IMG/VR virus record: IMGVR_UViG_3300042402_007133
Length of the DNA stretch: 64,000 nt
Origin: an uncultured virus (IMG/VR IMGVR_UViG_3300042402_007133)
Taxonomy: Duplodnaviria > Heunggongvirae > Uroviricota > Caudoviricetes
Strand: one strand, 5' to 3'
The position numbers and the translations under genes are program-made. Of this stretch, positions 8,353 through 45,958 are shown piece by piece. The notes beneath the pieces were generated by a model that made no database searches, was not told the origin of the DNA, and saw only the letters and a list, made by a program, of their open reading frames with translations. Numbering within the stretch: position 1 is the stretch's first letter; the number at the start of each line of letters is the position of its first letter.

Positions 8353-10074
8353 TTAGTTAGATTTTAGTTTCTTTATCTTCTCTATTGCAAGCTTGTTATA
8401 GATTGATTGTGTTAGAACTTCTTTTATCTCTATGTTGACAGAGCAAGGGACCGCAAAATCTACAGTATCGTTAAAGTAGTTTCCGTATCTGTCGTACCAA
8501 CCGCCCCTTACGAGTGGAAGTTCTCCCTTTCCTATTATGATGTCTCCCTGGCTATCCAAACCAATATCTGCCGGTTCCGGAGTATTTGGTGCTGTTGCAA
8601 GCTTTTGGAGCCATTCGCTCTTTATCTTTTCATTCTCCTCACACATGAATTTAACATTGACCGAATCTATTCCATTGATTCCTTCAAGTATTGCAACTAT
8701 ATCACTCTGTGGAATTCTGTCCCTTCTCACAAATGAAAGAAGGTACTCATTTAGCCTTGATACGACGTCAGACTTTAGAAGATCCACAGAAACGTTATCA
8801 AATATTACAAGGCTTATGTTTAGGACGTACCTCTTTATCACTGGCCTGAGGATTCTCATCTCGGATGTTACAAGCATCGATCCTGACTCCTGAACATAAT
8901 CCCTGATCTTCTTCACCTCGTCATCGAATAGAGTGAACTTCTCCACGTTTACGGTGAAATAGTTCTCATTTGTCTTTAGCCTCTTTTGTATCTCTGGAAC
9001 CAGATACACATAGACCACATTGTCATCCTCGAGGTAATCATCACCAAACGTGTCAAACGCGTCAACTATTGAGAAATAGTTCAGCCTCTGAAGAAAGTAC
9101 ACGTAGTTCTCTGGGCGAGCAAGAACGAGAGACCTTGATACCTTTGGTGCTATTATCTTTGTGAGTTCAATTGGCTCAGGAAAGGATCCAAGGACAACCC
9201 TTGATGCAAGGGATATGTTTATCCCGTTGTTTACATCTATGGTGTTTCCAACTGCATCAAAAACCTGATCTATAAACTTAAACTGAGCCTTTTCTGTGAA
9301 GTCTATGATGTTTCCATATGCCCCATCTGTGACAAGATACTGAACAACTATTGTTGCTCCTGCGTCTGGGATCTTTCCATACTGAGTGTTTCCGAATATG
9401 ACATCTATTCCGTTGTTTAGCGATGTTCTAACAAGACACCCAGATGCACCCATAGGCATGTCATAAAAGCTGTCATATATCTTGTACTCTTCTCCATTTA
9501 CATACACATTAACAAAAAAGTTGTCTATGTTATTGTTGTTCTTCACAAATGCATTGTATGTCTGGAGTGACTCAGCAGTGCCGGTGAATGTCTGGGATTC
9601 AATCTTCCCTTGGACCATCTTTACTTTAACAGAATCCCTCTGTCCTATGTTCATCCTTATCTCTTCTCTTGGCGCAAGGATTGTGTAATAGAGTCCGTTG
9701 TTGACGCACTGTATTGTTGTAAAGTTTGGTATTACGACTTGATTGTTTGCTGCCTGTATTGTTTCTCCAGTAAACGTCAGGTTTATGTCACCTGTTGCAC
9801 CCACAGCCCTTGTTGGGTTGTGACCTGCAAGACGGGCAAGCCCGTACACAGAGCTTCTTCTTGTTGCTGTGTATATGTTGAGCTCCGTTATGCTGTCTTC
9901 AATGTAGAAGAAAACCCTTTGGGTGAACGCAGATATGGCAGTAAGGAGCTGGCCATATGCAGACGAAGGTCCAAATACTGCACCTGATTGCGAGTATGCA
10001 TTTGAGAAGTATGTTCGAGCATCGCTGTATATCTGTGAAAACAGCACACTCATCTTTTTTAGGAGTTCGTTCAA
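8353..10074 (-). CDS. gp6: Baseplate wedge subunit (T4 gp6 / baseplate J-like)
   Basis: Motifs ELNIYTATRRSSVYGLARLAGHNP, VIFGNTQYGKIPDAGATIVVQYLVTDGAYGN and LEGINGIDSV are typical of gp6/J-like proteins. The start may be TTG 10074 or ATG 10053. Confidence 0.85.
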   Translation of the reverse strand: MNELLKKMSVLFSQIYSDARTYFSNAYSQSGAVFGPSSAYGQLLTAISAFTQRVFFYIEDSITELNIYTATRRSSVYGLARLAGHNPTRAVGATGDINLTFTGETIQAANNQVVIPNFTTIQCVNNGLYYTILAPREEIRMNIGQRDSVKVKMVQGKIESQTFTGTAESLQTYNAFVKNNNNIDNFFVNVYVNGEEYKIYDSFYDMPMGASGCLVRTSLNNGIDVIFGNTQYGKIPDAGATIVVQYLVTDGAYGNIIDFTEKAQFKFIDQVFDAVGNTIDVNNGINISLASRVVLGSFPEPIELTKIIAPKVSRSLVLARPENYVYFLQRLNYFSIVDAFDTFGDDYLEDDNVVYVYLVPEIQKRLKTNENYFTVNVEKFTLFDDEVKKIRDYVQESGSMLVTSEMRILRPVIKRYVLNISLVIFDNVSVDLLKSDVVSRLNEYLLSFVRRDRIPQSDIVAILEGINGIDSVNVKFMCEENEKIKSEWLQKLATAPNTPEPADIGLDSQGDIIIGKGELPLVRGGWYDRYGNYFNDTVDFAVPCSVNIEIKEVLTQSIYNKLAIEKIKKLKSN

Positions 10075-10087
10075 TCTTCTTTAATTT

Positions 10088-11431
10088 TTACACACCAACA
10101 ACAGTGGTCTTGTCATCAACCAGTGTCAAATCAGATATTCCACCGCTTCTTATTATACAATTTACAATCTCACCTTTAACATTATGTGGCATGTTGTCTA
10201 TGTAGCAGTTAGAGAATCTGTTGTCAAGCGTCTTTATGTAGCAGGATTTTATCTTTGAATCGTCTATTGAATTATCAAGAACAACCTCACAGAACGATAG
10301 CTGAGAAGACGAAATCTTGCATCCAATCAGGATGCATTGATCTATTATTGAATTCTTCAGCTTGCAGTCAACCAGATCGTATGATGTAAGCGCCCATGGC
10401 TTTTTGAATACACCATCCTTTACCTGGTACCTGTGAAGGTCTATATCCAAATTGACGTGTCCGGACTTCAACCCATTCTTATATATCAGATCAAAAAGGA
10501 CGTTTCTGTATTCATCCCAGTATGTTGAGAGCAGTTGGTCTGTATTTTTTAGATCAACATACACCTCAATATCCTTGTAAAAAACAGAGAAAAGCTTGTG
10601 GTTTAGCATCCCATTTATGAACTTCTTGTGCTCCGCAAGCCTTCCTTTTATCCTTGTGAGGTTTTCTTCCGTGTAAGCACCGTTGGCAAGACAGTCATAT
10701 ATCGTTAGAGCTGCATAATCCATGCACTCAAGGATCTCAACAACCTTATCCTCATAATCCTTTCCACCAAGATACCTCATTTCAAGGTATCCGTTTGCTA
10801 GCTTTGAGAAGTTAAAGCCAAAGTACTTCTCATTTGGAACAGTAAAGCTTGATCTGTTTATTGTCTTTATGTTATCATTGAAGCTAAACAGGTTGTTTGG
10901 GAAGACATAATCTATTGATCTTGCAAAAACATTGTTTCTCCTGTTTGGAAACCTCTCAAATATGAAGTCTTCATTGAATGTTAGTATTAGTTTTAGTACA
11001 TCCAATGCAGATATGTCAATGTTATTGTTTGGCGTTGTGAACCTATTGAAGCTAATGTTTATGTGTATTCCGGCCCTATCATTAGTTTTTCCGTTCTGCT
11101 TTATCCAGTTTAGAACCTTTGCTAGGATTATCTTTGCTTCAAAAAATGGAGTAGGGCCAGTGACGAGTTCCATCATGGCCCTTCCTCCAGAAAAATCATG
11201 TTCTAACTTGTAGTTGTTATAATCAACGTTAACATCGGTATGTGCGCCAGGGACCTTTTCACCCTTTGAATTGGTCTTATATGCAGCAGTCACCCTCTTT
11301 CCTAAGAGGGATGACATTTCTGCTGCCACTGTAGGAAACTTCTTGTTAGAAAAGAACTCGAACTCGAACCCTATAAGGGCCGAGTTCAAGATCTCATTCT
11401 TATTCAGAAATTCTTTAGTTCTCTGATTCAT
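10088..11431 (-). CDS. Putative amidoligase (Amidoligase_2-like, COOH-NH2 ligase fold) with C-terminal beta-helix-like repeats
   Basis: Motifs GFEFEF, MELVTGP, TNDRAGIHINISF, KYFGFNF and YLEMRYLGG. The C-terminus has repeated short units (NSIIDQCILIGCKI...). Confidence 0.7.
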   Translation of the reverse strand: MNQRTKEFLNKNEILNSALIGFEFEFFSNKKFPTVAAEMSSLLGKRVTAAYKTNSKGEKVPGAHTDVNVDYNNYKLEHDFSGGRAMMELVTGPTPFFEAKIILAKVLNWIKQNGKTNDRAGIHINISFNRFTTPNNNIDISALDVLKLILTFNEDFIFERFPNRRNNVFARSIDYVFPNNLFSFNDNIKTINRSSFTVPNEKYFGFNFSKLANGYLEMRYLGGKDYEDKVVEILECMDYAALTIYDCLANGAYTEENLTRIKGRLAEHKKFINGMLNHKLFSVFYKDIEVYVDLKNTDQLLSTYWDEYRNVLFDLIYKNGLKSGHVNLDIDLHRYQVKDGVFKKPWALTSYDLVDCKLKNSIIDQCILIGCKISSSQLSFCEVVLDNSIDDSKIKSCYIKTLDNRFSNCYIDNMPHNVKGEIVNCIIRSGGISDLTLVDDKTTVVGV

Positions 11432-12551
11432 TTTCGTTTATTATCGTTGCAAAAACCCTGTTTCTCTTGGGTTCTACCGAACTTATCCTTATCTTTATAA
11501 TTCCACCAATCTTTAGCCTATTGTTCTGACCAAACTGGCCCTTCATTGATATTGTAGTTACAACTCCATTGAAATCTACCGTAACATATGATCCCTTAAC
11601 AGAGAGGACCTTTGCATTCACAGCTACATCGCTGTTTTCTGACTGTATTATGTTTGCTATCTCAGTGAGAATTGCTATCATGTGCTCTGTTGAGTTCTGT
11701 GTAAGTATGAAGTTCTTAGGTGGTATTATGTCTCTTACCCAGATATTGATCTTATCACCTGGACGAACTTGGCCTGTTTTGAACAGGGCCAATGTTGTTT
11801 GATCCATGTCTGTGTGTGAAAGAAGACCCGTCATTATCTCGTTGAATTCAATGAATATTCCAGACTGTATTGTTCCTGTTACAGTTCCTTCATACATCAC
11901 TGACATATCAAACTTTTCAATCAATGTTGGCATGATGTGTTCAATGTATCGCTTGTTTGATACTATGAATGTATCGCTCTCATTGACGTATGAATCCAAC
12001 ATGACCTTTACTGTCTTTCCAAGGAATGCCTCAAAGTTTATGATCTTGTTTGCACTTGCAAGAGATCCAGGAAGAAACGCATCAACGCCATGTATGTTCA
12101 CAAAATAGCCACCGCGATTCTTCTCCATGATCTTTGCTTCATAGACCTTCGATGGAGTCTTAAGCTGTTCAAAAAATTCCTTGCGAAGAACATCTTTCTG
12201 TGCTTCGGAGAAGCTTCCTCTGAGTCCAGACTCTGTTGAAACCACCTTAACATAGTATGGGTTGTTCTGTGATATAGAACCAACCAGTTCTTCTGCAGTC
12301 ATTGAAATGCTCTTTAGAAAATCTTTCTCCTTACTCATCTTGACCATTATAGAAGGAGAGAAAGGTCCAGAAACAACAAGCATGTTATCAGAAAGAAGCG
12401 TTGCAGAATTTATCTGGAACACTTGCCCAGCTGAGACAGTCTTGCTAACCTCTTCGCTTGAATTTTTTGACACCATGTCAAAGTATGTTGCATCATCGAC
12501 AGGATGCTGAAAATTCTCAAAGATTGAGAAGACGTTTGAATTGAAAATCAT
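11415..12551 (-). CDS. rpsA: Ribosomal protein bS1-like protein (tandem S1 OB-fold domains)
   Basis: 378 aa. KIMEKNRGGYFVNIHGVDAFLPGS...IVSNKR and YEGTVTGTIQSGIFIEFNEIMTGLLSHTDM...RPGDKINIWV match successive bS1 domains, with a further OB domain at the C-terminus. Confidence 0.8.
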   Translation of the reverse strand: MIFNSNVFSIFENFQHPVDDATYFDMVSKNSSEEVSKTVSAGQVFQINSATLLSDNMLVVSGPFSPSIMVKMSKEKDFLKSISMTAEELVGSISQNNPYYVKVVSTESGLRGSFSEAQKDVLRKEFFEQLKTPSKVYEAKIMEKNRGGYFVNIHGVDAFLPGSLASANKIINFEAFLGKTVKVMLDSYVNESDTFIVSNKRYIEHIMPTLIEKFDMSVMYEGTVTGTIQSGIFIEFNEIMTGLLSHTDMDQTTLALFKTGQVRPGDKINIWVRDIIPPKNFILTQNSTEHMIAILTEIANIIQSENSDVAVNAKVLSVKGSYVTVDFNGVVTTISMKGQFGQNNRLKIGGIIKIRISSVEPKRNRVFATIINENESEN

Positions 12552-12585
12552 GAAATCCTCATAATTAAAAGTTGATCAAATATTG

Positions 12586-12594
12586 CTATATATC
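12586..12594 (-). promoter_or_regulatory. Putative late promoter motif GATATATAG
   Basis: Intergenic, upstream of the S1-amidoligase-gp6 genes. Confidence 0.65.
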
Positions 12595-12613: not shown

Positions 12614-15316
12614 TTAGATGGGCCCAAATATACTCTCAGGGAGAAATCCACCTACATACTTTCCAGATTTGCACCACTTCCATAAAAAGAAGAGAAGCGG
12701 TATGTTTAGGATGGACAGCCTCTCCCATGGAGGGAGTTCATCATTGAATATTGGTAGAGAGGCGCTGAACTGCGGACTTATCTCTGTGGGAAAACCAAAC
12801 TGGATTGCCCTTGGAGACAGGTCTGCTGCCAGTGCCTTCAATGATCCTAGAGCAAGAGAGTATGAGGAAAGAAGAACAGGCAGATTTATCAATCCAAGGT
12901 CTATTGTAGGAACACTTATTTTATCAATCAAATCTCTAAGGGTTTTTACTGTTTCATTGTATTGATCTTCAAGTTGTTGTATCTCTTGAAGTTTTTGTTC
13001 ATATGCCTGTTTTCCATTTTCTATTATGGCTTTTACTGTCTGTTCGGCGTTTTCTTTCAATGCATTTGCCCGTGCCTCTGCATCAAATGTTATTTCTGAT
13101 GCAAACCTTCTTGCATCTTCTATCATATTCTGTGCATCGTTTACCTTTTGCTGAACTTCTCTTGTTATTGAGAGGGTTACAGCAGAAAGCAGGTTTGCAT
13201 CCTGGTACCTTCTTCTTGCATTATCAATCATCATTTGACCGTTTTCTTGTGCCTGTCTTATTGCAGCCTCAGCGGTCTGTTTGGCAGACTGCACTGTTTG
13301 TGTGGCCTGATTCTTTGCATTTTCTATTATTGAATTGATGTCCCTTTGTGAAAATGCAAGGTATCTTTGGGCAGAGTTTTGGACCTGCTCCAGCTGATTT
13401 TGCACCTCAGTTATAAGTGCATTAACATCGACGCTGATGCCATTCCTGAAGTTTTCAAGTAGCGCACTAAGGATTCCAAAAACAAGATCAAAGCTTGGAA
13501 GAGTTGCAGGAGGAAGAGGCTCGTGGTTGCTTATGTTGACAGGCCCTCCTATTGCAGCAGCAAAATAAGGGTTGTTTGATTGAAACGGCCCTACAGGTAC
13601 AGGAAGAAAGTGTTGTAGAAAAAGATACGGACATGGAAGTATACCGCACTGACCTATGAAAAGCACCGCTATAAGTTTGTCCGTAGGGGCAACAAATATT
13701 GGAAACCATATTATCGGAAACGGAATTCTTATCAACCCGCTTGGTGTTGGTATCAAGAGGCCGATAGGCCAATGAACTGGGACGAGATTTACCAATGTTG
13801 CAAGAGATGAAAACTTCAGCCACCAGGAGTAATCAAATATTGTTGGGTTTTTGCTGACATTCTTGAAGTTGAGATCCTTTCCTGCCTCTACCTTTGCTGG
13901 AACCTCCTTTGACTTGCAATTCATGTTTGCCAGCTCTGACGATATCTCCTTGTTTATGTTATCGATGTCTTCCTGTGCCTTTCTTTCCTTCTCCTTCAGA
14001 TCAAGGTACTTCTTTGATATCTCCTCCTGCTTTGCCTTATTTTCATTTGCAATATCCAAGAAATCAGGCTCTATTGCCTCTTTTTCAAGAAACTGATTGA
14101 GGCCAAATGCAAATGAGTATTTCTCAACAGAAGCAACTGTTGATAGGAAGGCATCGTCTAGATCCTTTTCAGTTTTCTTGGCCTGCTCTGTTATCTTTGC
14201 CGCAGAGTCCGTAGAATCTTTTTGAGCCGTATCAAGATACCTTAGCAATTCATCTGGTATGTCTTTAACTTTGCCAGAGAGTGGTGTTTTTTCCTTGTTT
14301 ATCTTTATCAGAGGTGATGATTGGAAAAGACCAAGAAATCCGCTTTCTATCTCTATATCGAACTGGTTGCTGAATCCAAAGATGATCTCTTCCATCTTTT
14401 CCTGCACATCTGATCTATCCGATGCAAATGCGTAGTCTTTGTTTATTGTTGAAAGAATCTTCTGTATCTCTGCTGCTCTTTCCTTTGACTTCTGATCTGT
14501 CGAAGATGATACATCATTTAGTTCGTCTTTAAGCCTGTTTACTTCTCCGTAACCGTTGAGGAACGCTTGGTAGTATGAATTGACTATTGTCTCATAGTAA
14601 TAGTCCAGCTGTATCTCTTGGATCTTGTTCTTTACGTCCGTGTACGTGTTGACTTTTTCCTGGACCTTCTTCGCAATGTCCTTCATCTTTGCTATGCAGT
14701 CAGGGCCGTTCTTTGGGAATATGTCTGATTCGACAGAATTTTTTGCTTCCTGCAGAAGCTGATTAAATGAATCATCTGATGGTTCAGGAAGAAAAGAATC
14801 ATCTAGTTGAAGGTCCTCTGTTGGAAATGTTGTGGAAACTTCCTGTATTGTTGCCACCTTTTCTGGAACTGGTGGTGTTGGTTCACAAGCAGCATCAATC
14901 AGTTCCTTTTCTGAAAACTCTGGAGTCTCTGTTGTTTGTTGTGGAACGCACACATCTGCAAGATCTATCTCTATCGGCCTAAACTCTTGGCCAGGATCAA
15001 CGATAACAGGTTCTTCTATTGCCTTTGCAAGCTCATCGACAGTAAAATCCTGTTGCATCCTTTGAAGAACCTGTTCTATGTCCAGAAGCGAAGGTTTCAA
15101 GAGCTCTTCATCTATCTCCTCAAGGCCGTTCTCCTTGAGTATAGCATTCAGCTGTTGGATGTTGGAAAGAGACGGCTCTTCAAAATCTATGAACTGTATG
15201 CCATCAAGTGTCTTTGTCTTTGTATTTTTCCTTATCTGTCGTATGACAGGCTGAACATCACTTGATAGCTTGAATATGGAATTGAACCACCCTATTATTT
15301 GTTGAAAGTCTATCAC
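12614..15316 (-). CDS. Hypothetical 900-aa protein: acidic coiled-coil region, Pro-rich hydrophobic segment, Ala/Gln-rich helical region
   Basis: Long ORF directly downstream of the gp5-like gene. No family recognised. Confidence 0.5.
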   Translation of the reverse strand: MIDFQQIIGWFNSIFKLSSDVQPVIRQIRKNTKTKTLDGIQFIDFEEPSLSNIQQLNAILKENGLEEIDEELLKPSLLDIEQVLQRMQQDFTVDELAKAIEEPVIVDPGQEFRPIEIDLADVCVPQQTTETPEFSEKELIDAACEPTPPVPEKVATIQEVSTTFPTEDLQLDDSFLPEPSDDSFNQLLQEAKNSVESDIFPKNGPDCIAKMKDIAKKVQEKVNTYTDVKNKIQEIQLDYYYETIVNSYYQAFLNGYGEVNRLKDELNDVSSSTDQKSKERAAEIQKILSTINKDYAFASDRSDVQEKMEEIIFGFSNQFDIEIESGFLGLFQSSPLIKINKEKTPLSGKVKDIPDELLRYLDTAQKDSTDSAAKITEQAKKTEKDLDDAFLSTVASVEKYSFAFGLNQFLEKEAIEPDFLDIANENKAKQEEISKKYLDLKEKERKAQEDIDNINKEISSELANMNCKSKEVPAKVEAGKDLNFKNVSKNPTIFDYSWWLKFSSLATLVNLVPVHWPIGLLIPTPSGLIRIPFPIIWFPIFVAPTDKLIAVLFIGQCGILPCPYLFLQHFLPVPVGPFQSNNPYFAAAIGGPVNISNHEPLPPATLPSFDLVFGILSALLENFRNGISVDVNALITEVQNQLEQVQNSAQRYLAFSQRDINSIIENAKNQATQTVQSAKQTAEAAIRQAQENGQMMIDNARRRYQDANLLSAVTLSITREVQQKVNDAQNMIEDARRFASEITFDAEARANALKENAEQTVKAIIENGKQAYEQKLQEIQQLEDQYNETVKTLRDLIDKISVPTIDLGLINLPVLLSSYSLALGSLKALAADLSPRAIQFGFPTEISPQFSASLPIFNDELPPWERLSILNIPLLFFLWKWCKSGKYVGGFLPESIFGPI

Positions 15317-15326
15317 TTTTAGGGCC

Positions 15327-16055
15327 TTATGCTGTTGTTTTTACAGTCTTTGATAGTGCAGATCTTGCCTGTTGCATTGTTGCTGTGGCCACGCCAGGAG
15401 ATGGAGGCCATTTCAAATCAACTGTTGCTGCCAATGTATCCAAAGCAGCAAGCAAGACTTCTCCTAAAAGAACAGAAAACTCAGGTGATGTTCCAAGTTC
15501 TGTAAGGCCACCATTTACATGGACATTTGGAGAATTGACTTCAACCTTGCTTCTTGCATTTACAGTTATCTGACCTGCCTTAAGTTCTATGTTTGACTGA
15601 CTTTCCTTGTGGTCTATAAGTATCGATTGATCTGGGTTTATTGATATGCTGCTGTCTTTGTAATAAACCTGCATCCCATTCGAAGGGGTAAACCATATCT
15701 TGAGGTCCTGGTCTTCGTCGTAAACTATTACGTGTGAGTCTTGGTATGTTTCTGATAGCTCCCTTCTGAGTTTATCATTCAGATGTATGACCGAACACCA
15801 AACAGGGTTGTGTATGTCCTCATTCATGAACATAACCTTCACAGCAGTCCCGGGTTTTGGAATTGATATGCTTCCTCCACCTTTGCTTTCACCACCAGCA
15901 AAGACGTTGCTGCCTTGGTAAAAGGACCAGGGAAGGTCTTCATTAGAAACATTATCATACACTCCAAGCACTCGCACTTTGCAACGACCAAGTCTTTCTG
16001 GATCGTTGGAATCTATGACAAATCCAACGTAGTCCTTTTTAAGATCCAAAGTCAT
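15327..16055 (-). CDS. gp5: Baseplate central spike protein (gp5/VgrG-type OB-fold, no lysozyme domain)
   Basis: N-terminal VIDSNDPERLGRCKVRVLGVYD...LPW...SIPKPGTAVKVMFMNEDIHNPV is the gp5/VgrG OB-fold signature, followed by a beta-rich region. Confidence 0.85.
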   Translation of the reverse strand: MTLDLKKDYVGFVIDSNDPERLGRCKVRVLGVYDNVSNEDLPWSFYQGSNVFAGGESKGGGSISIPKPGTAVKVMFMNEDIHNPVWCSVIHLNDKLRRELSETYQDSHVIVYDEDQDLKIWFTPSNGMQVYYKDSSISINPDQSILIDHKESQSNIELKAGQITVNARSKVEVNSPNVHVNGGLTELGTSPEFSVLLGEVLLAALDTLAATVDLKWPPSPGVATATMQQARSALSKTVKTTA

Positions 16056-17703
16056 CTTCTACCTTAGGTTTTTCAAATGCTATGTTGTTTGGAACGTCAT
16101 CTAGCACGGTTGGCTTCACAAATGCTATGTTATTATCCACACCTGTTGCAACCGAAGGCCTTCCAAAGGTAATAGTTTGGTCTATTGTTGTTTCAACAGT
16201 CGGCCTTTCAAACTGAATGTTTTGGTCCAGTGTTGTTGCGACAGTTGGTGCAATGAAACCGACATTGTTATCAAGCCCTGTTTGAACAGTTGGTGCCATG
16301 AGGTCTACACCACTTCCTTGGTCTGTGTTTACTGTTGGAGCAGTAAGGTTAACAGAGTTGGAAAGTTCTGTCTGGACGGTTGGCTTTGTGAGCCCAACAT
16401 TATCATCAATTTCTGTTGCAACCCCTGGCTTTAGCAGGGAAAAGTCAGAGAGCTCAGTCTCGACCTTTGGTTTTCTAAAATCTATTTGGTTTGCCACTTC
16501 ATCTCCTATTGTTGTTCCATCTCCTGCTACATTTGGGGGTTCAAGATTTACTGATTCTGATATGTCTGTGTTAACAGTCGGACGCCCAAAATCTATAAGG
16601 GATGGATTTTCTGTTATGTTTGCTGTCTGTATGGATGTTTGTAAAAGCGATGTTGCCAGCGAAGCAAGTTCTGCTTGTTTTGTGATTCCATCTAGTTGTT
16701 GATTGTTTAATCTATTGCGATCTGGATAAGGAAGAGAAGCTATCCTATCTCCGGTTATAAATGTCAATCTATTGAGAAAATTCTGTGATACATTTCTACT
16801 TAAATCCAGTAGGACCTGGTTGTAGTTTCCTTCATAAGATCTTATGAAAGGTGCAAGGAGAGATCGGTAGTTTGTTATATCAGCACCCTGATTCAGTTCA
16901 GCACCGCTTCCGCCCTGTTTTATGACAAAATCCCTCTTTATCTCACCAAGCATGTAATTCAAAAGAAGGTAAGAATTTGTCTCTTGCACCCTATGGACCT
17001 TTATCCCAAACGACGGTGCCAGCTGCACTGGTGCCTCAGATGCATCCAATGCCGATGGGATTATTCCAGAAAAGTCAAATTCACAGTCAAGGCACCTGAA
17101 TGCAACGGAAGATACATGGTTCAGCCAATCCGTTGTGTTTGATTCTACAAACGTCCTTAGGTTTCTTGCTTCTCCGATGAGAATTGTCATGTTGAACCTC
17201 TTCTTGTCCATCGTCAAGAGGTCTCTAAAGTATCTTCTATCCCTTGTTGCCTTTCTGTAAAGATCTGCAAGGGCTGTTATTCTTAGATCAACCGTTTCAT
17301 AACAGCTTATTGTGAGATCAACTGGAGCGCTTTGTGTTGATGATCCATCTGCGTTTGGATATCCCCATTTCCATAAGTTGTCTATTCCGGTCAAATTCTT
17401 AAAGAACCAAGGGAAGTCGTTTGTTATTCTTCCCAAAAGCCATGTAAACTCCTTTAGTGCCTCTGCTCTTTCTAGCTCTCCCATCCTTCTGAGATAGCTT
17501 ACAGCGCTTTCGTCTCTTGACTCGTTCAGTAGAAGACCTTGCATGACTTCATCGTTTGATACTATTGGCTCGAAATCAAACAGTATCCTAAACGTTACAA
17601 AGGACGGATCATTGTACTTGAGCTTCTGTTCATTGGGATTTCCGGAAGATTCATAAACGAACTTCCGATCCAAACGACCTACACTGAAAAGACTGCTGCT
17701 CAT
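16039..17703 (-). CDS. Putative tail-tube-fold baseplate protein (gp54/gp48-like) with C-terminal 15-aa repeats
   Basis: DLTISCYETVDLRITALADLYRKA...KRFNMTILIGE...FRCLDCEFDF resembles tube-fold proteins. Located in the baseplate cluster. Confidence 0.5.
   Translation of the reverse strand: MSSSLFSVGRLDRKFVYESSGNPNEQKLKYNDPSFVTFRILFDFEPIVSNDEVMQGLLLNESRDESAVSYLRRMGELERAEALKEFTWLLGRITNDFPWFFKNLTGIDNLWKWGYPNADGSSTQSAPVDLTISCYETVDLRITALADLYRKATRDRRYFRDLLTMDKKRFNMTILIGEARNLRTFVESNTTDWLNHVSSVAFRCLDCEFDFSGIIPSALDASEAPVQLAPSFGIKVHRVQETNSYLLLNYMLGEIKRDFVIKQGGSGAELNQGADITNYRSLLAPFIRSYEGNYNQVLLDLSRNVSQNFLNRLTFITGDRIASLPYPDRNRLNNQQLDGITKQAELASLATSLLQTSIQTANITENPSLIDFGRPTVNTDISESVNLEPPNVAGDGTTIGDEVANQIDFRKPKVETELSDFSLLKPGVATEIDDNVGLTKPTVQTELSNSVNLTAPTVNTDQGSGVDLMAPTVQTGLDNNVGFIAPTVATTLDQNIQFERPTVETTIDQTITFGRPSVATGVDNNIAFVKPTVLDDVPNNIAFEKPKVEDDFGS
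16042..16596 (-). repeat. About 12 imperfect 15-aa (45-nt) repeats, consensus (I/V)x(F/L)xxPTVxTx(L/I)Dxx
   Basis: Visible in the translation: VGLTKPTVQTELSNS, VNLTAPTVNTDQGSG, VDLMAPTVQTGLDNN, VGFIAPTVATTLDQN, IQFERPTVETTIDQT, ITFGRPSVATGVDNN. Confidence 0.9.
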
Positions 17704-18935
17704 TGATCCTGAAATTTTGTTATGAGTGCAGCGTCTGGCGTGTGTTCTGGGTTTGGAATTGCCATGTTTGACCTCTGCTGCGCCTCATCCCAGACAAAGT
17801 CGTCAAAGCCTAGCTCAACAAACCTGTCATGTATTGCCTTGTCATAGTATGATGATATGTATCTCACTGCACGCTGTATCTCTGGCCTTCTAGGCTCTTG
17901 TGTGTTGTTTCCTCCACTGTTCATGTACTGAAGGTAGCACAAGCGTGGGACATGTATCATCCTAGTGTTTAAGAAGCTTCTTACAACGAGTTCATAATCA
18001 TCAGCTATGTGGAGCTTTGGGTTGTGTCCTCCTATGCTGAAGTAGAATTCAGACTCCCATGCTCTTATGTGGTTTGGTGCTGCAACAATGTGTCGTATGG
18101 TCTTTGGGTTTATCGGAGCGGTCTCACATGTGTACACTGCACCGTTATAGTGTGCGTCATAGTGTCTTCCGTAGCCAAAGCCCCAGAACGATCCATAGTT
18201 TACACATCCGCCGGTCTCAAACACTTCTGATGCATCCGTGTAAAGAAACTTTCCTTCTGGATATTCATTGAACCCCGAAACAACGTGGTCAAGGGCCCAA
18301 AATGTTAGAACATCATCGTGGTCAAGCTCAACGAGGTACTTCCCTGTGCACAGACCCGCTGCATATCTCTTGACCTCTCCTATCATTCCACTTGGCCTGC
18401 TGCCCTTGAAGACCTTTATCCTATGGTCCTGCTGTGCAAGCTCAAGAAGCATGTCATACGTCTTTCCGCCATCATTAGAGTCATCATAGAGCACCCATTC
18501 CCAGTTCTTGTGCCTCTGTGCCTGAAGGGATGAAAACACCCGATATATCCTGTTTCCTGTTCTATACGTAGGAGTGAAACAGCTGACAAGAGGATCTGCC
18601 ATGTTCTTCTCAACATTCAATGTTGAATCTATGAAACACGTGTATGCATTGTCTCCGATTAACGTATCTTCTGTGTACTCATCGACATGTATCCACTTCC
18701 TTCTTATGCCATATGGCGCATTGAACAGCTGGGCATAATCTGAGCTGTTTCCTGTCGTTATGAAAACCGACGGGTTTATCTTGTTTATTATGCCATTCAG
18801 ATCATCTTTATCAGAAAAGTAGTGGCATTCAAAATCATGGGACTCCCAGTCTATGTAATTACTAGACTTGAGCTTTATGTCCTGGATCTTTGATGGATCC
18901 TTTGAAAATATTGCAACAACTGGTGTTATTGGCAC
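17700..18935 (-). CDS. Glycosyltransferase family 2 (GT-A) with N-terminal extension
   Basis: Motifs PLVSCFTPTYR, WEWVLYDDS, GKYLVELDHDD (DxD) and ADDYELVVR. GTG start. Confidence 0.9.
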   Translation of the reverse strand: MPITPVVAIFSKDPSKIQDIKLKSSNYIDWESHDFECHYFSDKDDLNGIINKINPSVFITTGNSSDYAQLFNAPYGIRRKWIHVDEYTEDTLIGDNAYTCFIDSTLNVEKNMADPLVSCFTPTYRTGNRIYRVFSSLQAQRHKNWEWVLYDDSNDGGKTYDMLLELAQQDHRIKVFKGSRPSGMIGEVKRYAAGLCTGKYLVELDHDDVLTFWALDHVVSGFNEYPEGKFLYTDASEVFETGGCVNYGSFWGFGYGRHYDAHYNGAVYTCETAPINPKTIRHIVAAPNHIRAWESEFYFSIGGHNPKLHIADDYELVVRSFLNTRMIHVPRLCYLQYMNSGGNNTQEPRRPEIQRAVRYISSYYDKAIHDRFVELGFDDFVWDEAQQRSNMAIPNPEHTPDAALITKFQDQ

Positions 18936-20372: not shown

Positions 20373-20981
20373 TTAAACTATTCGATTTTTGATGAGCCTT
20401 GCAAGAAGCTCGCCCTTGCTTATGGGAGCGCTCTCATTTGTTATGCACTTTCCAATGTTTGGAGCAAATATGACTTCTCCGCCTTTAATCAGAAACTGTT
20501 TATCACCAAAGTCTGCAAGGCTAGGAGGAAGACCGCTGCCATCCTCTTTCAACTGGTCAATCCCCTTTTCAAAGGATTGGTTGAACTTTTGTATCGCTGT
20601 TTCTTGGTTTGGGTTCTTGTTTATGTCCTTGAAGTTCAACCTAAAATCCAACGGAACTTCACTTGGAACCGGTTCTGTTTCGACCTGCACTTCTCTAGAA
20701 AATGAAACTGTGTTTGGTATGACCAGGACATCATCGATGTTTAGAGCATATGGGTTTGATATTCCATTCATCTTACATATCTGATCTTGGTATGTGTCTT
20801 CTCCATATGCACGAACAGAAACAAGATCAGGCCTCGCCTGCTCTCCATCTACAACCTTTGCAATGGTCTGCATCCTTGCATTGACAGATTTAAGGGTCCT
20901 TGCTGCTATATCAACAACCCTTTCCATTGTATCTTCTATGACCTTTTCTGGCTTCCTAGAAAGAATAAATGAATCAAACAT
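20373..20981 (-). CDS. gp53: Baseplate wedge protein gp53-like (LysM-like)
   Basis: RPDLVSVRAYGEDTYQDQICKMNGISNPYALNIDDVLVIP is the gp53/LysM-like signature. Confidence 0.8.
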   Translation of the reverse strand: MFDSFILSRKPEKVIEDTMERVVDIAARTLKSVNARMQTIAKVVDGEQARPDLVSVRAYGEDTYQDQICKMNGISNPYALNIDDVLVIPNTVSFSREVQVETEPVPSEVPLDFRLNFKDINKNPNQETAIQKFNQSFEKGIDQLKEDGSGLPPSLADFGDKQFLIKGGEVIFAPNIGKCITNESAPISKGELLARLIKNRIV

Positions 20982-21588
20982 CTTGCTGTAATTTTTTTAT
21001 TATCCAGTAAGAGTCCACAAGATCGTCTACTGGTTTAACAACTTCTTCTCCCTTTAGAATCAGATCTAAGGAATGCTTTATTTTAAGAAACACCTGGCTG
21101 TTCTGAAGCATTGCATCATCGCTTTCAATAAACTTCTCTAACATATCCTTCTTCTTAAACTTAGCACCTCCAGCAAATGCCTTTACTGTTATTGGAGGAT
21201 AAAAGAATATGTCATTGACAGTCAAGGAAAGGGTGTTTTTTATGAGATTCCTCAAAAGAAACTGATAGGATACCAATTCAAGCAGACTATTTCCTTTGCT
21301 GTTAAATGAATGCCCTTCAAATGCAACAGAAGAAACATCATTCTTCTTTAGAACATCAACAATCGATGAGCATAATGCTTCTGAATCCAGGAGCTTTGAC
21401 CTTTCAGTTGCACAGTAGTCATCTCCTTTTGTTCTCTTTGGAAACATATGGCTGGTAAATCCAGCACCATCAAGATCAAAGTACTTCGTCTTCTCTCTTC
21501 CAAAATGATGCCAGTGATAACCAGCATCCGACAGTACGGTTATACACGTTGAGTTTATGCTGAAATCTATTGATGCTATGTTCTCCAT
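20974..21588 (-). CDS. RuvC-like (RNase H fold) nuclease / Holliday junction resolvase
   Basis: IASIDFSINST, VAFEG, PITVKAFAGG..KKDM and DDLVDSYWI follow the acidic motif order of RuvC-like enzymes. Confidence 0.7.
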   Translation of the reverse strand: MENIASIDFSINSTCITVLSDAGYHWHHFGREKTKYFDLDGAGFTSHMFPKRTKGDDYCATERSKLLDSEALCSSIVDVLKKNDVSSVAFEGHSFNSKGNSLLELVSYQFLLRNLIKNTLSLTVNDIFFYPPITVKAFAGGAKFKKKDMLEKFIESDDAMLQNSQVFLKIKHSLDLILKGEEVVKPVDDLVDSYWIIKKLQQDV

Positions 21589-21590
21589 TT

Positions 21591-24188
21591 TTATAAATCC
21601 CTTGGATTATCAGTTTGTCCATCCCGTGCCCTTGATATGTGAGGAGTAGGAAGTATTGTTTCGCTATTTGATGTTATCTTATGGAAATTTGATAGAGACT
21701 CAACAGTAGATTCTGGTAGGAATCCCATGAAATCAAATATTCCACTTCTTCCAACCTGCTTTGATATTTCCTCTTGGACCTGTTCAAGTTCCTTTCCTTC
21801 AAATAGATCAGGCTTTGGTATGTACAACGGACCAAATCCATCGTTGAACACTGATTCAACATCTTGGTTTGCCCTTGACATTCCTGGCTTGAGCCTAACA
21901 GTTGCTGTCATCTCTGTTGGAAAATCATCAGGCCCAAGCTCATTGTTGAATGATATATCAACTCCTTCACATATGAGGTTTCCTATCACAGCTATTGGTT
22001 TGAATGGGTTTCCGACAGTTAGATGCCATTCGCCAACAGGGGCGCCAGTCCTGAGGGCCTGAAAAGCAGGCATAGATGCGTTTCCGCCGCCCTCAGTTAA
22101 ACCAAACAAGCCTGCAAGAAGGTCTATTGCTGCAAGGTTCTTCAGCTTGTCTGGTATTCCAGCGGATGCTGCATCTGCTGCAGTTGCTGTTGCTCCAGTA
22201 TCTCTTCCACCAACAATTCTATTGTTTTGTGCCTGGCCTGAATTCCTAGGCGTTTGTATGTTTGAGTCTCTAAGGGCAAGAAGGCCCTTTATTGCATCAA
22301 CAGTTGGCAGCTCATTTCCAAATGCTTCTCTTATGATCGTCTCAAACTGTTGTGTTGCACCATCAAAATTTCCTGTCCATATGAGCTTAACAAACTCAAT
22401 TGTTTGTTTCTCATCCAACAGGGGAAATATTCCCTTGTTTAGATAGAACCTCGCCTCGCCGCCCCAGAAGTTTCCTCTGTAGTGGGTTGTAGCAAGAATG
22501 TTTGCCATTATGTCAAGCATTGCAGCCTTTGCATTTATGTGGCCTATTGCCTTTAGTGAGTACTCAAATTTAATGTTAATTGAGCCATCACCCATAATAC
22601 CACCAGAAAGGCCTGATTTTCTTTGTTGTGTGGTTAGTATCCTGTTGTATGGCTCTCTATAAAGGTCTGATAGGTATCCGCCTTGTGCATATGGGTTAAA
22701 CGTATCTAAATAGCTACTTATTCCAGCAAACCTTGCAGGGTCTATAACTCCAGTGTATGCAAGGACTCCGGCTGCTAACTCAGATGCTGTAACTCCAGGA
22801 ATAGACGATGCAGCAGACTGTATCTTATTAAAGAATTGTTTTCCTGTCTCTGCAGTAGAACCACCAATGATGCCTGCAGCAGCCCCTGCACCAAGGTTCA
22901 ATCCAAGATTTGCTATTCCAGCAGTAATCTTTGCAAACCGGCTTGCATCAAACATTGTTGTTACATCCAGTGGCTGTCCATTGTTTAACACTATATCATT
23001 GACCTTGGACCCAGAAGTTTCTTCCCATTTTGATGATACCGATATCTTTATTATTGTGCTTAAATCGTTTCCAGATTCTCCTCCAAAATATGTCACCATC
23101 TGTGATATTGGATTGTTAGACCATCCCTTTATCTTGTAGGCACCTGCCTTGCTTGTTCCTCCACCAAAGTAAGGGCTCCTTGTTAGGTTGTCCTGTATTG
23201 GAAACATGTAGCGTCTTAGCGTTACCAATCTTGTAAGGGGAATACGATTGTAGTACTTTAACCAAAGAAAATCTGCTGCCCTGTATGGTGTCGGGTTTGA
23301 TTGTGAGAATCCGCCAAACTTTGATAATATTGCAGAAAGCGTGACCTCTCTTCTTCCTATCTTTGAAACACCCATCCTGGATTCTTTATCAAGAAGAAGC
23401 CTGGACTGCGCTGCGCCATCATCGCCGGATGACATTCCATTTGCAACCGTGTTAAGCCTAAACACGTAGTGTGGGTTAGTTATAGGTTCAACACCCTGGA
23501 ATCCAACAGGCGGCGGTGGAGGTATAGAAGGCCCCGATGGGCCAACTCCAGAAGCAGGAGGTTTAACATTTGGTGTTTGGGAAGGCGCCCCCTTTGAGTA
23601 CTGCTTGTTTGCATCCAATGGACCATAGAATGCATATGATAGCCTTGAATCAACAACACCAAGGTTTGTGGTCTTTGCTGCTGCTGGATCCAACAATGAA
23701 TTAACAGCACCCCTGAACACATCTTTGATGTCCTGTACGACGCCTCTTGCAATTGAATTTCCTTGCTGTGCTGCCTGATTTACAAGGCCTCGTGAAAGGT
23801 TGTTTGCAAATGTAGAAAGCTCTACTCCGGGGTTTCTAAGGAGATTTTCCACATTTATCTGTGTTAGTTCATCTCCTATGAACGTCCCTCCAAAGTTGGA
23901 AGAGATCCTTGCTATTGGAACAAGGTCTTGGCCGGATTGGAATAAGTTTCCAACAACACCAAATGATTGCGGAAATTCAAGAACCGAAAACCTATCAAAG
24001 TTTGGGCTTAGTGTATTTGCTGTTGCTGGATCAACACCCAATACATTGTTGACAGTTGTCTTTAAGGTCTTTGCAGGATCAGATCCAAACACTATCCCAG
24101 AGGTTATGGTAGAGGTGACTGAGCCCTCTATCATACTTGTTGGATCTGGTGGAAGAGATAATTTTAATGCGTCTGCAAAGATGCTCAT
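21591..24188 (-). CDS. Putative baseplate/tail-tube initiator-like structural protein
   Basis: 865 aa between the gp25- and gp53-like genes. C-terminal GEWHLTVGNPFKPIAVIGNLICEGVDISF...DDFPTEMTATVRL is tube-initiator-like. Confidence 0.5.
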   Translation of the reverse strand: MSIFADALKLSLPPDPTSMIEGSVTSTITSGIVFGSDPAKTLKTTVNNVLGVDPATANTLSPNFDRFSVLEFPQSFGVVGNLFQSGQDLVPIARISSNFGGTFIGDELTQINVENLLRNPGVELSTFANNLSRGLVNQAAQQGNSIARGVVQDIKDVFRGAVNSLLDPAAAKTTNLGVVDSRLSYAFYGPLDANKQYSKGAPSQTPNVKPPASGVGPSGPSIPPPPPVGFQGVEPITNPHYVFRLNTVANGMSSGDDGAAQSRLLLDKESRMGVSKIGRREVTLSAILSKFGGFSQSNPTPYRAADFLWLKYYNRIPLTRLVTLRRYMFPIQDNLTRSPYFGGGTSKAGAYKIKGWSNNPISQMVTYFGGESGNDLSTIIKISVSSKWEETSGSKVNDIVLNNGQPLDVTTMFDASRFAKITAGIANLGLNLGAGAAAGIIGGSTAETGKQFFNKIQSAASSIPGVTASELAAGVLAYTGVIDPARFAGISSYLDTFNPYAQGGYLSDLYREPYNRILTTQQRKSGLSGGIMGDGSINIKFEYSLKAIGHINAKAAMLDIMANILATTHYRGNFWGGEARFYLNKGIFPLLDEKQTIEFVKLIWTGNFDGATQQFETIIREAFGNELPTVDAIKGLLALRDSNIQTPRNSGQAQNNRIVGGRDTGATATAADAASAGIPDKLKNLAAIDLLAGLFGLTEGGGNASMPAFQALRTGAPVGEWHLTVGNPFKPIAVIGNLICEGVDISFNNELGPDDFPTEMTATVRLKPGMSRANQDVESVFNDGFGPLYIPKPDLFEGKELEQVQEEISKQVGRSGIFDFMGFLPESTVESLSNFHKITSNSETILPTPHISRARDGQTDNPRDL

Positions 24189-24547
24189 GTTACTACTTGA
24201 AAGTTTAGGATGTTGTTGATGTAAACATCAATTATCATCGTTCTTGATATTTCACCGTCTGTGACATAAACGTCAATCTCAACATTCACTCCTGTAAAGT
24301 ACGGTTTTATGTACTCAAAATACTGCCTGTCTATCTCTTGACGTATTTGGTCCTGATCAAAATCAAACTCAAACAGCATGTCCTCAAGATTCAAGCCGTA
24401 GTATGGGTAAGCAATGACTTCACCTGGCGAAGTGGCAAAAAGCATCTTTAGCTGCTCAACAAGATCTTGGATGTTATCATTCTCCTCCATCTTGTTTGCC
24501 ACATACTTTGGATCGTCTTCGTTTCTGAGATATATGTCTCTAAGCAT
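24185..24547 (-). CDS. gp25: Baseplate wedge subunit gp25-like (sheath initiator)
   Basis: QLKMLFATSPGEVIAYPYYGLNLEDMLFE matches the gp25/GPW motif (T.pGE....P.fG..L..lLFE). Confidence 0.85.
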   Translation of the reverse strand: MLRDIYLRNEDDPKYVANKMEENDNIQDLVEQLKMLFATSPGEVIAYPYYGLNLEDMLFEFDFDQDQIRQEIDRQYFEYIKPYFTGVNVEIDVYVTDGEISRTMIIDVYINNILNFQVVT

Positions 24548-24553
24548 ATGTTA

Positions 24554-25285
24554 TTAGTGTACCTGCAAGAAGTAGTCTGGAACGTTTTCAGTGTCTATCT
24601 TCTCTAGAACCTTGTCGACCATTGCTTGACCCTGGCTCTCAAATATGGAGGCGTTTATCTGTGCGCCACCAGGAAGATTGAAGCTTATGAACGAATATAC
24701 CCTTGCCATAGAGACCAATGCCTTTCCTTTGACGTAGTCAATGAAGAGTGGGTCATCATACAGACTCTGTTCAGGTATCTTCGTCATAACCCGACATGAA
24801 ACATCGTATTTCGGATTTCTTCCAAGCAGGGTCAAATGGTGCGTGTTCTGGTTGTAGTTGTATTGTATTCTTTCCAAAAAGTATGCACGAGTAAGATCGT
24901 AATATGCATACTGAGCAGTTCTATAGACAAGGTCATCACTTCCGAATGGCGCAAGATATAGCTCGGCTGCTATCAGACGGTTTTCTGTTATATCCTGGTC
25001 AACCATTCCAAAGAAGTTGGCAGACTTCATTTCCTTGACATCAAGAACGCTCACAACACAATCAGGAAGAACTATCTGCCTTCTATTTGATTTCCACACA
25101 GAATCAAAGGTGGACCTTGGAAGTATGTAATAAACAGTCTCAACTGCATATTGATAGTTCTGAAAGAACCATCTGGCAGCATCATTTATTATCCTATCAA
25201 TCTCTTTTATTCCGATTGATGTTGATATTGCACCAGATGCCGTGATTTCGTCTTGGACGAGCTCTATGAGTTGATCTTTTACCAT
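24554..25285 (-). CDS. gp13: Neck protein gp13-like
   Basis: Motifs IDRIINDAARWF, LPDCVVSV and DYVKGKAL...FNLPGGAQINAS. Start moved from 25315 to ATG 25285 because the longer call runs through a terminator hairpin and the ATATATA motif. Confidence 0.8.
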   Translation of the reverse strand: MVKDQLIELVQDEITASGAISTSIGIKEIDRIINDAARWFFQNYQYAVETVYYILPRSTFDSVWKSNRRQIVLPDCVVSVLDVKEMKSANFFGMVDQDITENRLIAAELYLAPFGSDDLVYRTAQYAYYDLTRAYFLERIQYNYNQNTHHLTLLGRNPKYDVSCRVMTKIPEQSLYDDPLFIDYVKGKALVSMARVYSFISFNLPGGAQINASIFESQGQAMVDKVLEKIDTENVPDYFLQVH

Positions 25286-25288
25286 GCC

Positions 25289-25297
25289 GTATATATC
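25289..25297 (-). promoter_or_regulatory. Putative late promoter motif GATATATAC
   Basis: Immediately downstream of a terminator and 3 nt upstream of the gp13 ATG. Confidence 0.6.
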
Positions 25298-25325
25298 AAA
25301 AAAGAAAAGGCGCATATGCGCCTTT
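25298..25325 (-). terminator. Intrinsic terminator
   Basis: Palindrome aaaggcgcat-atgcgccttt followed on the minus strand by a T-rich run, right at the stop of 25324..25683. Confidence 0.75.
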
Positions 25326-27685: not shown

Positions 27686-27918
27686 TGCTGAGGAGCCTCT
27701 TGTTCTTCTTGGGCTGAAGCATTAACAGCCTCAACAGACCTGTCAGGCCTAAAGAACACTATTGCATCATAGATGATCTTTGCTTCTTGCATTGTGTATG
27801 CACCAAGCCTTTGTGCATGCTCTGCTGCATTGACAAGCACATTGATTGCCTTTGCTGGATCATCAATAACGTAAGCAGGAGTCTGCTGACGCTCTTGTGG
27901 GGTTTCGTTGTTTTCCAT
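27682..27918 (-). CDS. Small hypothetical protein
   Basis: 78 aa, coupled to the hydroxymethylase (1-nt overlap) and the DUF707 gene (4-nt overlap). Confidence 0.6.
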   Translation of the reverse strand: MENNETPQERQQTPAYVIDDPAKAINVLVNAAEHAQRLGAYTMQEAKIIYDAIVFFRPDRSVEAVNASAQEEQEAPQQ

Positions 27919-30157: not shown

Positions 30158-30589
30158 TTATCCGTTGTATCCATTTTCGTTTATCCACTGTAGGTATTTC
30201 TTCAATTCCTTGTCCTCTACCGTTATGGAAAATATTCCCTGTTGAAATATCTTCCACGAATCAGATGCATATTTTCCTACGCCCGGAAGTGATTCAACAT
30301 TTGATCCGTCCCAATTCAGCCACTCATGTGAGAACTTCTTCCACATCTTGGCCCTTCTGTTGTAGAACCCAAGAGGGCGTATTATGTCTATTATCTCCTG
30401 GTCTGATGCGCCCAATAGGTCTTCGGGGGTTGGAAACTTCTTAAAAAACTCATCCCTTACCTTATCGACCTGTTTGTAACAGGTCTGATTTAGCATCATG
30501 CATATCATTAGCATCTTCCAAGGATCGTGCTTATAGATCTCTTGGCGATACCTAAATGGACTCATTGGAGGCTGTCTGGTTTTTTTCAT
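30158..30589 (-). CDS. MBD4-like HhH-GPD DNA glycosylase (stand-alone catalytic domain)
   Basis: HDPWKMLMICMMLNQT, RPLGFYNRRAK, LPGVGKYASDSWKIF and EDKELKKYLQW parallel the MBD4 glycosylase domain. No Fe-S cluster cysteines. The start may be the second Met (MSPF). Confidence 0.85.
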   Translation of the reverse strand: MKKTRQPPMSPFRYRQEIYKHDPWKMLMICMMLNQTCYKQVDKVRDEFFKKFPTPEDLLGASDQEIIDIIRPLGFYNRRAKMWKKFSHEWLNWDGSNVESLPGVGKYASDSWKIFQQGIFSITVEDKELKKYLQWINENGYNG

Positions 30590-36209: not shown

Positions 36210-36213
36210 GAAC

Positions 36214-36222
36214 CTATATATC
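36214..36222 (-). promoter_or_regulatory. Putative late promoter motif GATATATAG
   Basis: 4 nt upstream of ATG 36209. Confidence 0.55.
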
Positions 36223-36227
36223 ATGTC

Positions 36228-45955: not shown

Positions 45956-45958
45956 GCC

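Follow-up and report, generated by a model that had tools for sequence, protein, structure and literature searches.

A bS1-type protein gene paired with a ligase-like gene inside the baseplate block of an uncultured tailed virus, with a possible role in translation initiation

The stretch of DNA analysed here, referred to as the window, comprises 64,000 nucleotides (nt) of an uncultured Caudoviricetes virus (IMG/VR record IMGVR_UViG_3300042402_007133). On its minus strand it carries a gene for a 378-amino-acid (aa) protein similar to ribosomal protein S1 (11415..12551, ATG start), followed by a gene for a 447-aa ligase-like protein (10088..11431, ATG start). As the initial annotation had stated, the two genes overlap by 17 nt: the open reading frame (ORF) listing places the stop region of the S1-like gene and the start of the ligase-like gene together in 11415..11431 (minus strand), so that their translation is likely to be coupled. 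The gene for a 573-aa baseplate wedge protein of the gp6/J type (8353..10074, minus strand, TTG start) begins 13 nt past the ligase stop. This protein matched phrog_219 (4.2e-28) and, by tblastn, genes that carry a baseplate wedge annotation in jumbo phages of Tenacibaculum and Flavobacterium, its score against Pfam Baseplate_J reaching only 0.067. On its other side, the S1-like gene is preceded by the gene for a 900-aa, weakly tape-measure-like protein (12614..15316, minus strand; phrog_1272, 1.7e-5) and by a gp5/V-type spike gene with an oligonucleotide/oligosaccharide-binding (OB) fold (15327..16055, minus strand; PF04717, 1.2e-6; phrog_430, 3e-17), the upstream landmark of the block.

The family identity of the 378-aa protein was examined with sequence profiles and with a structural model. 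A single S1 stretch was detected by Pfam (aa 135-183, 1.2e-8); the 12 best NCBIfam matches were all rpsA models, the best being TIGR00717 (1.2e-16), aligned from aa 31-251 on profile positions 13-221, with the PNPase (9e-4) and CvfD (0.12) models far below them. In the PDB sequence search, 13 of 14 matches were S1 proteins. A profile built from 28 family members (A1) matched Escherichia coli bS1 with 9.6e-40, the second and third domains (D2-D3) falling on OB2-OB3 and the third and fourth (D3-D4) on OB4-OB5, and hhalign aligned the same profile colinearly with a 512-aa bS1-like protein over 327 columns (99.2% probability). The AlphaFold2 (AF2) model, with a predicted local distance difference test score (pLDDT) of 81.9, contains four OB domains, and its top four Foldseek matches were bS1 chains (best 2.8e-18). 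With VIA-align, model residues 31-204 were superposed on OB1-OB2 (residues 11-174) of ribosome-bound E. coli bS1 (9guq_B; Z 12.9, root-mean-square deviation 3.8 Å over 160 residues), D1 and D2 fitting as one unit, and the chains 9gut_B and 9guv_B were matched across model residues 33-376. The gene is under strong purifying selection, with a ratio of non-synonymous to synonymous substitution (dN/dS) of 0.05 against the homologue at L001, the same value being obtained for the ligase gene. No PHROGs family was found for either protein at E <= 0.01. Judged from these homologies, the 378-aa protein is of the ribosomal bS1 type and not of the Tex, PNPase or CvfB type, the non-ribosomal alternatives named in the initial annotation, and it is best described as a compact, four-domain paralogue of bS1 belonging to a virus lineage. 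The description of the protein as multi-domain in that annotation agrees with the four OB domains of the model and of the profile matches, although Pfam shows just one stretch.

The four domains are not equally close to their cellular counterparts. D1 (aa 44-113; 12213..12422, minus strand) is OB1-like in the AF2 model and in the VIA-align superposition, but divergent, aa 76-92 forming a helical insert, and no sequence match to OB1 was found for it in a search of solved bS1 structures. D2 (aa 137-198; 11958..12143, minus strand) carries the OB2 signature of bS1, GGY...AFLPGSLA; it aligns to residues 110-177 of the E. coli protein, the GGY149 and AF159LPGSLA parts of the signature falling on residues 110-135, and G147, G148, F159, P161, G162, L164 and A165 are invariant across the 28 family members. 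In E. coli bS1, F120 and F130 of OB2 contact mRNA near the exit channel (PMC10123108), and the equivalent positions of the phage protein sit in invariant motifs. D3 (aa 220-284; 11700..11894, minus strand) is a canonical S1 domain of the RNA-binding type that aligns with OB3 and OB4 of bS1, and D4 (aa 309-371; 11439..11627, minus strand) aligns with OB5 and with domain 4 of Mycobacterium tuberculosis S1. The protein ends in an acidic tail, NENESEN. Many distant relatives (for instance, P0076, L004 and L017) have, ahead of OB1, the N-terminal pattern [DEN]F[DN]W..[YF] ... (F/Y)S.EPYAQ; a motif of this kind was not found in the subclade of the window, and had no match in solved bS1 structures.

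The ligase-like protein was divided into two parts. The N-terminal one (aa 1-320; 10472..11431, minus strand) has the glutamine-synthetase-like fold of carboxylate-amine ligases (Amidoligase_2). Its match to PF12224 is marginal (23.3 bits against a gathering cut-off of 22), but the same family is precomputed on several homologues and on 14-19% of the members of the three nearest Atlas clusters, all of them virus-only. The AF2 model (pLDDT 91.6) was aligned over residues 8-252 with 4bax_A by VIA-align (Z 10.8, root-mean-square deviation 3.5 Å, 186 residues) and matched glutamine synthetase in Foldseek with 1.7e-5; no NCBIfam family was found for the protein. The window protein has E23, E25, E88, E217 and R219, all invariant in the alignment of ligase homologues (A2), and by analogy with glutamine synthetase we take these positions to be metal- and phosphate-binding. 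On its modelled fold, this part is a glutamine-synthetase-fold amidoligase in which the conserved acidic and arginine positions are kept. The C-terminal part (aa 321-447 and the stop codon; 10088..10471, minus strand) resembles a pentapeptide-repeat beta-helix, with a strand ladder at aa 347-432 of the model, weak matches to MfpA in the profile search of the PDB (1.1e-3), and Foldseek matches to AlbG (3.7e-4) and MfpA (1.0e-3). PF00805 is found in 15% of the members of one Atlas cluster and was not reported on the window protein by the Pfam scan at E <= 0.1. The helix has about four coils and is nearly neutral (isoelectric point 6.3). The label of amidoligase given at the outset is thus confirmed by the fold where Pfam is marginal, but it had overlooked this C-terminal helix.

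To define the state of the ligase in relatives, the ligases of the S1 loci, the window included, were compared as 60 distinct rows. All five positions are kept in 31 of the 60. The other 29 (such as L011, L017, L029 and L033) have lost E23, E88 or R219, by changes that include E23 to V, I, T, R or K and R219 to N, while keeping their length, the NYIGG-type motif, the C-terminal helix and their position at the locus. As the rows were aligned at about 27% identity, single columns could be misplaced, yet the pattern is consistent across motifs. The degenerate homologues look like a lineage of pseudo-enzymes, and the retention of length, helix and place suggests a non-catalytic, possibly structural role for the partner.

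Relatives of the S1-like protein are encoded by 383 viral contigs of IMG/VR, of which the 80 best loci were examined. An exhaustive representative search yielded 7909, 3396 and 400 matches at E <= 1e-3, 1e-10 and 1e-30, respectively, and most of the best 150 representatives were about 330-430 aa long and aligned almost end to end. These totals mix phage and cellular forms, since a cellular-type fusion of cytidylate kinase and S1 (P0333, 904 aa) is among the best matches. P0333 was the one long match and shows no similarity to the ligase (hhalign probability 0.2), and no fusion of S1 and ligase was found among the representatives. The nearest record of the window, a 14.6-kb fragment (G001), gave no S1 match.

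A ligase homologue lies 3' of the S1 gene on the same strand in 73 of the 80 loci, with a median gap of 211 nt (<=300 nt in 42 loci). L001 and L002, the two closest relatives, retain the overlap, which is replaced by a shorter overlap or a small gap at other loci. In six loci, the S1 gene is without a ligase on the side towards gp6, and one further locus has no downstream room; L008, the one gap examined of the six, has a gp25 homologue between S1 and gp6. A gp6 gene was found downstream in 58 of the 80 loci and a gp5 gene upstream in 39. In the reverse search, made with patterns of the intact catalytic motifs, 558 contigs were matched and the best 80 kept, and S1 is upstream on the same strand in all 66 ligase loci with at least 2.5 kb of room. 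Adjacency, which the initial annotation had left to be checked, is therefore conserved from both sides.

From the ligase side, a homologue of a 253-aa, neck-like window protein was found downstream in 64 of 67 loci, so that S1 (66 of 66) is no less constant a neighbour of the ligase than this gene. In the three exceptions (L081, L082 and L127) the ligase abuts gp6; L081 and L082 are on the same contigs as L001 and L003, close relatives of the window, and L127 is more distant (36% ligase identity). The genes that lie between ligase and gp6 in the relatives are homologues of two window genes located elsewhere, as revealed by blastp of the gap ORFs: the 253-aa gene (24554..25315, minus strand) and a gp25 gene (24185..24547, minus strand; PF04965, 2.9e-5). 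On these counts from both sides, the ancestral order is read as gp5 ... S1, ligase, a 243-aa gene, gp25 and gp6, with a subclade-specific rearrangement that has left the 253-aa gene and gp25 12 kb upstream here and the S1-ligase pair intact. Therefore, the immediate succession of ligase and gp6 that was first noted holds for this subclade, and elsewhere the 243-aa gene and gp25 stand between them. Taken from sequence comparison, the pair is ancient, widespread and fixed inside the baseplate block.

The region upstream of the S1 gene contains two signals, both reported by the initial annotation and both found again. The first is a promoter-like box, GATATATAG, at 12586..12594 (minus strand), 34 nt 5' of the ATG. 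Exact copies number five in the window compared to 0.37 expected, a count reached in none of 100 shuffles, and all five (at 12586, 35357, 36214, 54645 and 62289) are on the coding, minus strand, at or just 5' of a gene start. The genes so headed are those of S1, the prohead protease, a lysozyme, a 1132-aa protein and a 308-aa protein. At the lysozyme gene, the box (36214-36222) runs into the ATG listed for ORF 35382-36224; the lysozyme match of this ORF does not start until aa 95-151, and its true start is therefore probably further downstream. Among 54 distinct S1 upstream regions of relatives, ATATATA is present in 51 compared to 5.4% of random windows, and [GA]ATATATA[GA] in 32 compared to 2.7%. 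The S1 gene would thus appear to head a transcription unit of its own, marked by a clade-wide ATATATA box. A factor of the sigma-70 family is encoded at 58318-58983 (minus strand; Sigma70_r2, 1.1e-8; r4_2, 1.2e-5) and is a candidate reader of the GATATATAG and ATATATA boxes.

The second signal is a Shine-Dalgarno (SD)-like pentamer, GAGGA, at 12556..12560 (minus strand), 4 nt 5' of the ATG. It is conserved in just the two closest relatives, as GAGGA in L001 and GAGGG in L002, and the S1 leaders of more distant relatives are A-rich. Most gene starts of the window lack such a sequence, as had been claimed: a 4-mer SD core at -20..-4 was found at 15 of 51 starts compared to 17.5% of random 17-nt windows, and many genes, such as that of the major capsid protein, have A-rich leaders. 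With its strong SD-like GAGGA, the S1 gene belongs to a small minority, and its leader is the second least A-rich. There is a parallel in rpsU of Flavobacteriia, which also bears an SD sequence and is translated by ribosomes without bS21 (PMC7797042).

The cultured relatives of the gp6 gene are Flavobacterium, Tenacibaculum and Chryseobacterium jumbo phages and Sphingomonas phage PAU. As most of them infect Flavobacteriia, a host among the Bacteroidota is likely on sequence grounds. Ribosomes of Bacteroidia do not respond to SD sequences and are believed to depend on contacts between bS1 and mRNA (PMC7797042).

These data can be read together as follows. The S1 gene would be transcribed from its own ATATATA promoter-like box, a type of box found before the prohead protease gene as well; late expression is plausible because that box is shared and because ATATATA precedes S1 in 51 of 54 relatives. 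The protein would sit on, or work beside, the 30S subunits of the host, probably a member of the Bacteroidota, and would help to recruit SD-poor, A-rich phage messages while structural proteins are mass-produced. The ligase-like protein would probably be an S1-associated accessory rather than an obligatory S1-tagging enzyme. We prefer this explanation, in which the phage S1 helps to initiate the translation of SD-poor phage messages late in infection and the ligase is accessory, as it is the most economical and has already been published for huge-phage rpS1 (PMC7162821). It is held to be evenly poised, since the proposed docking to the ribosome draws its support from the fold and the OB2 signature, and since positional conservation and a pseudo-enzyme partner fit other explanations as well.

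Several observations weigh against this translational role. The TIGR00717 score of 60.4 bits compares to an equivalog cut-off of 577, and all 12 rpsA models remained far under their cut-offs. The anchor of E. coli bS1 on uS2 consists of an N-terminal helix with Phe5 and Phe9 and of Lys43 in loop 2 of OB1 (PMC10123108); aa 1-138 of the phage protein gave no sequence match to any solved bS1 (best matches spurious, E 0.2), nor did aa 1-171 of a distantly related family member, and aa 1-40 are modelled with low confidence (pLDDT 40-53), so that this anchor is not demonstrable in the phage S1. Conserved ligase positions (E23, E88 or R219) are lost in 29 of 60 rows beside S1. The position of the pair in the baseplate block is held down to about 30% identity, as would be expected of virion or assembly proteins more than of accessory genes. 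Furthermore, a long distance separates S1 from gp6 in the Lak and LR megaphages (540-735 kb), and no S1 match was obtained by tblastn in the cultured jumbo phages that have a relative of the gp6 gene.

The divergent N-terminus invites the explanation that the phage S1 binds RNA off the ribosome, as an mRNA chaperone or protector, as a repressor or activator of late messages, or as the cofactor of a phage RNA enzyme. Such a role would suit D3 and D4, which are canonical RNA-binding S1 domains, and the lack of a recognisable uS2 anchor, and phages are known to use host bS1 off the ribosome, as in Q-beta replicase and with T4 RegB (PMC13157829, PMC10123108). However, the geometry of ribosome-bound OB1-OB2 is preserved in D1-D2, and the bS1-specific OB2 signature in D2. 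In bS1, OB1 and OB2 serve for binding to the ribosome and not to RNA, although Q-beta replicase is bound by them as well (PMC10123108). An off-ribosome function is considered rather unlikely.

Across deep divergence the pair has kept one place, after the gp5 spike and before gp25-gp6, which bears on a second explanation, in which S1 and the ligase-like protein are of cellular ancestry and have become associated with the baseplate or tail, as structural components or as ejected cargo, their descent from an enzyme and a translation factor being of secondary importance. The pair was not separated by the rearrangement that displaced gp25 and the 253-aa gene, ligase homologues are retained although half of them look catalytically dead, and beta-helices are common in tail proteins. 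Position alone is nevertheless weak evidence for a virion role, because enzymes are interleaved with structural genes throughout the window (family-2 glycosyltransferases, a RuvC-like protein, a thymidylate synthase homologue, a guanylate kinase and the sigma factor). In addition, neither protein matches a structural PHROG family, cultured phages with a homologous gp6 are without S1, S1 of the megaphages is far from gp6, and the RNA-binding-type motifs of S1 are kept under strong purifying selection. We regard a virion-associated pair as unlikely.

It is equally improbable, in our estimate, that the ligase is a dedicated partner of the phage S1, rather than an independent metabolic enzyme, and covalently modifies S1 or a ribosomal component in lineages with an intact site and serves as a non-catalytic binding subunit in the degenerate ones. 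With a partner of this type, the RNA-binding face of S1 could be gated by the pentapeptide-repeat helix, which would offer a nucleic-acid-like surface. In a bolder variant, the S1-ligase pair would be loaded into the tail and baseplate and delivered with the DNA, priming translation of SD-less phage messages from the first minute.

A plain enzyme-substrate relationship was also considered, in which the amidoligase adds an amino acid, peptide or amine to S1 and so tunes its binding to ribosome or mRNA, by analogy with RimK and bS6. The overlap of 17 nt, the intact site in the window protein and in 31 of 60 distinct homologues, the constant position of intact-motif ligases after S1 (66/66) and the acidic NENESEN tail of the window S1 could all be accommodated, and tagging might occur in this phage alongside a function in initiation. 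On the other side, 29 of the 60 homologues are degenerate and still beside S1, and S1 is without a ligase in 6 of 80 loci and in Lak phages. The termini of S1 are not conserved, the C-termini included, and no terminal feature or acceptor motif was found to track the intact, degenerate or absent state of the ligase. As about half of the ligases are degenerate and some S1 genes have no ligase, a conserved enzymatic tagging of S1 is unlikely, and the suggestion in the initial annotation that the amidoligase modifies S1 is weakened; as a general explanation, we would give it little chance, though with its site intact the enzyme of this phage might still act in this way. Finally, a generic S1-domain protein of the Tex, PNPase or CvfB type, mislabelled as ribosomal and beside the ligase by chance, can hardly be credited: Pfam sees one S1 stretch only and, according to Al-Shayeb et al. 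2020, a "true" rpS1 is hard to confirm (PMC7162821), but the best family and PDB matches are bS1 (PNPase 9e-4 and CvfD 0.12 compared to 1e-16 for rpsA), and the OB2 signature, the OB1-OB2 superposition and the conserved adjacency (73/80 and 66/66) largely refute that identity.

In the rest of the window, enzyme genes were found amid tail, baseplate and head genes. They include family-2 glycosyltransferases at 17700-18935 and 20974-21588 and a RuvC-like resolvase at 36228-36869 (minus strand). The first glycosyltransferase is inside the baseplate block and has homologues in 4 of the 80 loci, those of the three closest relatives and L073 (29% identity). A thymidylate-synthase homologue (27918-28778), a dCMP deaminase (58967-59455), a guanylate kinase (36866-37381) and a HhH-GPD glycosylase (30158-30589) are also encoded, and the first of these could be a pyrimidine hydroxymethylase, a hint of modified DNA. 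Four tandem paralogous tail-fibre-like genes of 536-611 aa, with phrog_5073 in common, occupy 44345-51232 (minus strand), the first of which has long collagen-like repeats.

We know of no phage-encoded S1 that has been tested at the bench, and the phage S1 is one of few candidate viral factors that would re-aim bacterial translation initiation. What is added here is a compact, four-domain S1 with the OB2 signature and OB1-OB2 geometry of bS1, a late-type promoter-like box, and a fixed, virus-specific ligase-like partner whose catalytic site is degenerate in about half of them. Should the two proteins act together on the ribosomes of SD-blind Bacteroidota, the pair would represent a new kind of module for translation take-over; if not, the gene would be one more instance of a published class, since phage S1 genes have been in print since 2020 and the window gene joins them. 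No paper linking a phage S1 to an amidoligase or to a baseplate block was found in the literature search, outside of which the supplementary tables of PMC7162821 fell, and no description of the ligase beta-helix or of the intact/degenerate split was found either.

Compared to E. coli bS1, with six OB domains in 557 aa, the phage protein has four domains in 378 aa. Both have colinear S1 domains, the OB2 signature, the OB1-OB2 geometry and RNA-binding domains downstream; in the phage protein, OB1 has diverged strongly, and neither Lys43 nor the helix that anchors bS1 on uS2 can be recognised. RimK, an ATP-dependent ligase with an ATP-grasp fold that extends ribosomal protein bS6, is the model for a ligase that modifies S1. 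The fold of the window ligase is glutamine-synthetase-like instead, and, unlike the RimK-bS6 pair, no conserved acceptor terminus is found on phage S1 proteins. MfpA, AlbG and Qnr are pentapeptide-repeat beta-helices that mimic DNA. The C-terminal ~125 aa of the ligase show a weak likeness to them in profile and fold, but the window helix is short, nearly neutral and fused to an enzyme, and gave no evidence of DNA mimicry. Phage Amidoligase_2 genes are reportedly paired with a glutamine amidotransferase gene, a pairing said to have been noticed by Iyer et al. in 2009. Pairs of this kind are described in phiEco32, HMO-2011-type and OM43 phages (PMC10580990). The window ligase shares with these the PF12224 family and the glutamine-synthetase-like fold, but is fused to the pentapeptide-repeat-like helix and paired with S1 instead of an amidotransferase, none of which was detected among 47 window ORFs scanned with Pfam.

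The closest published counterparts are the possible rpS1 genes of huge phages, whose presence correlates with the absence of SD sequences (Al-Shayeb et al. 2020, PMC7162821). As anticipated by the initial annotation, S1 homologues are thus known from such phages, and tblastn with the window S1 matched 23 phage records, all of huge or uncultured phages. LR756500-504, LR745206 and 15 Lak records encode homologues with 24-37% identity; like the window, these phages combine an SD-poor genome with a proposed role of S1 in translation initiation (PMC7162821). The word amidoligase does not occur in the main text of that paper, and its passages on rpS1 give no baseplate context. Unlike in the window, S1 is not beside gp6 or a ligase in the 540-735 kb Lak and LR genomes, and of the published megaphages compared here, only LR756500 has S1, ligase and gp6 on one strand within 15 kb. 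A further parallel is offered by the phage bS21 genes, which are located in a conserved structural-gene region and expressed late in Bacteroidetes phages (Chen et al. 2022, PMC9723584). They concern another ribosomal protein and, unlike the phage S1, have metatranscriptomic support. Nevertheless, in both cases a gene for an initiation-related ribosomal protein is set amid the structural genes of large phages with SD-blind hosts, and both proteins have been proposed to favour phage messages late in infection.

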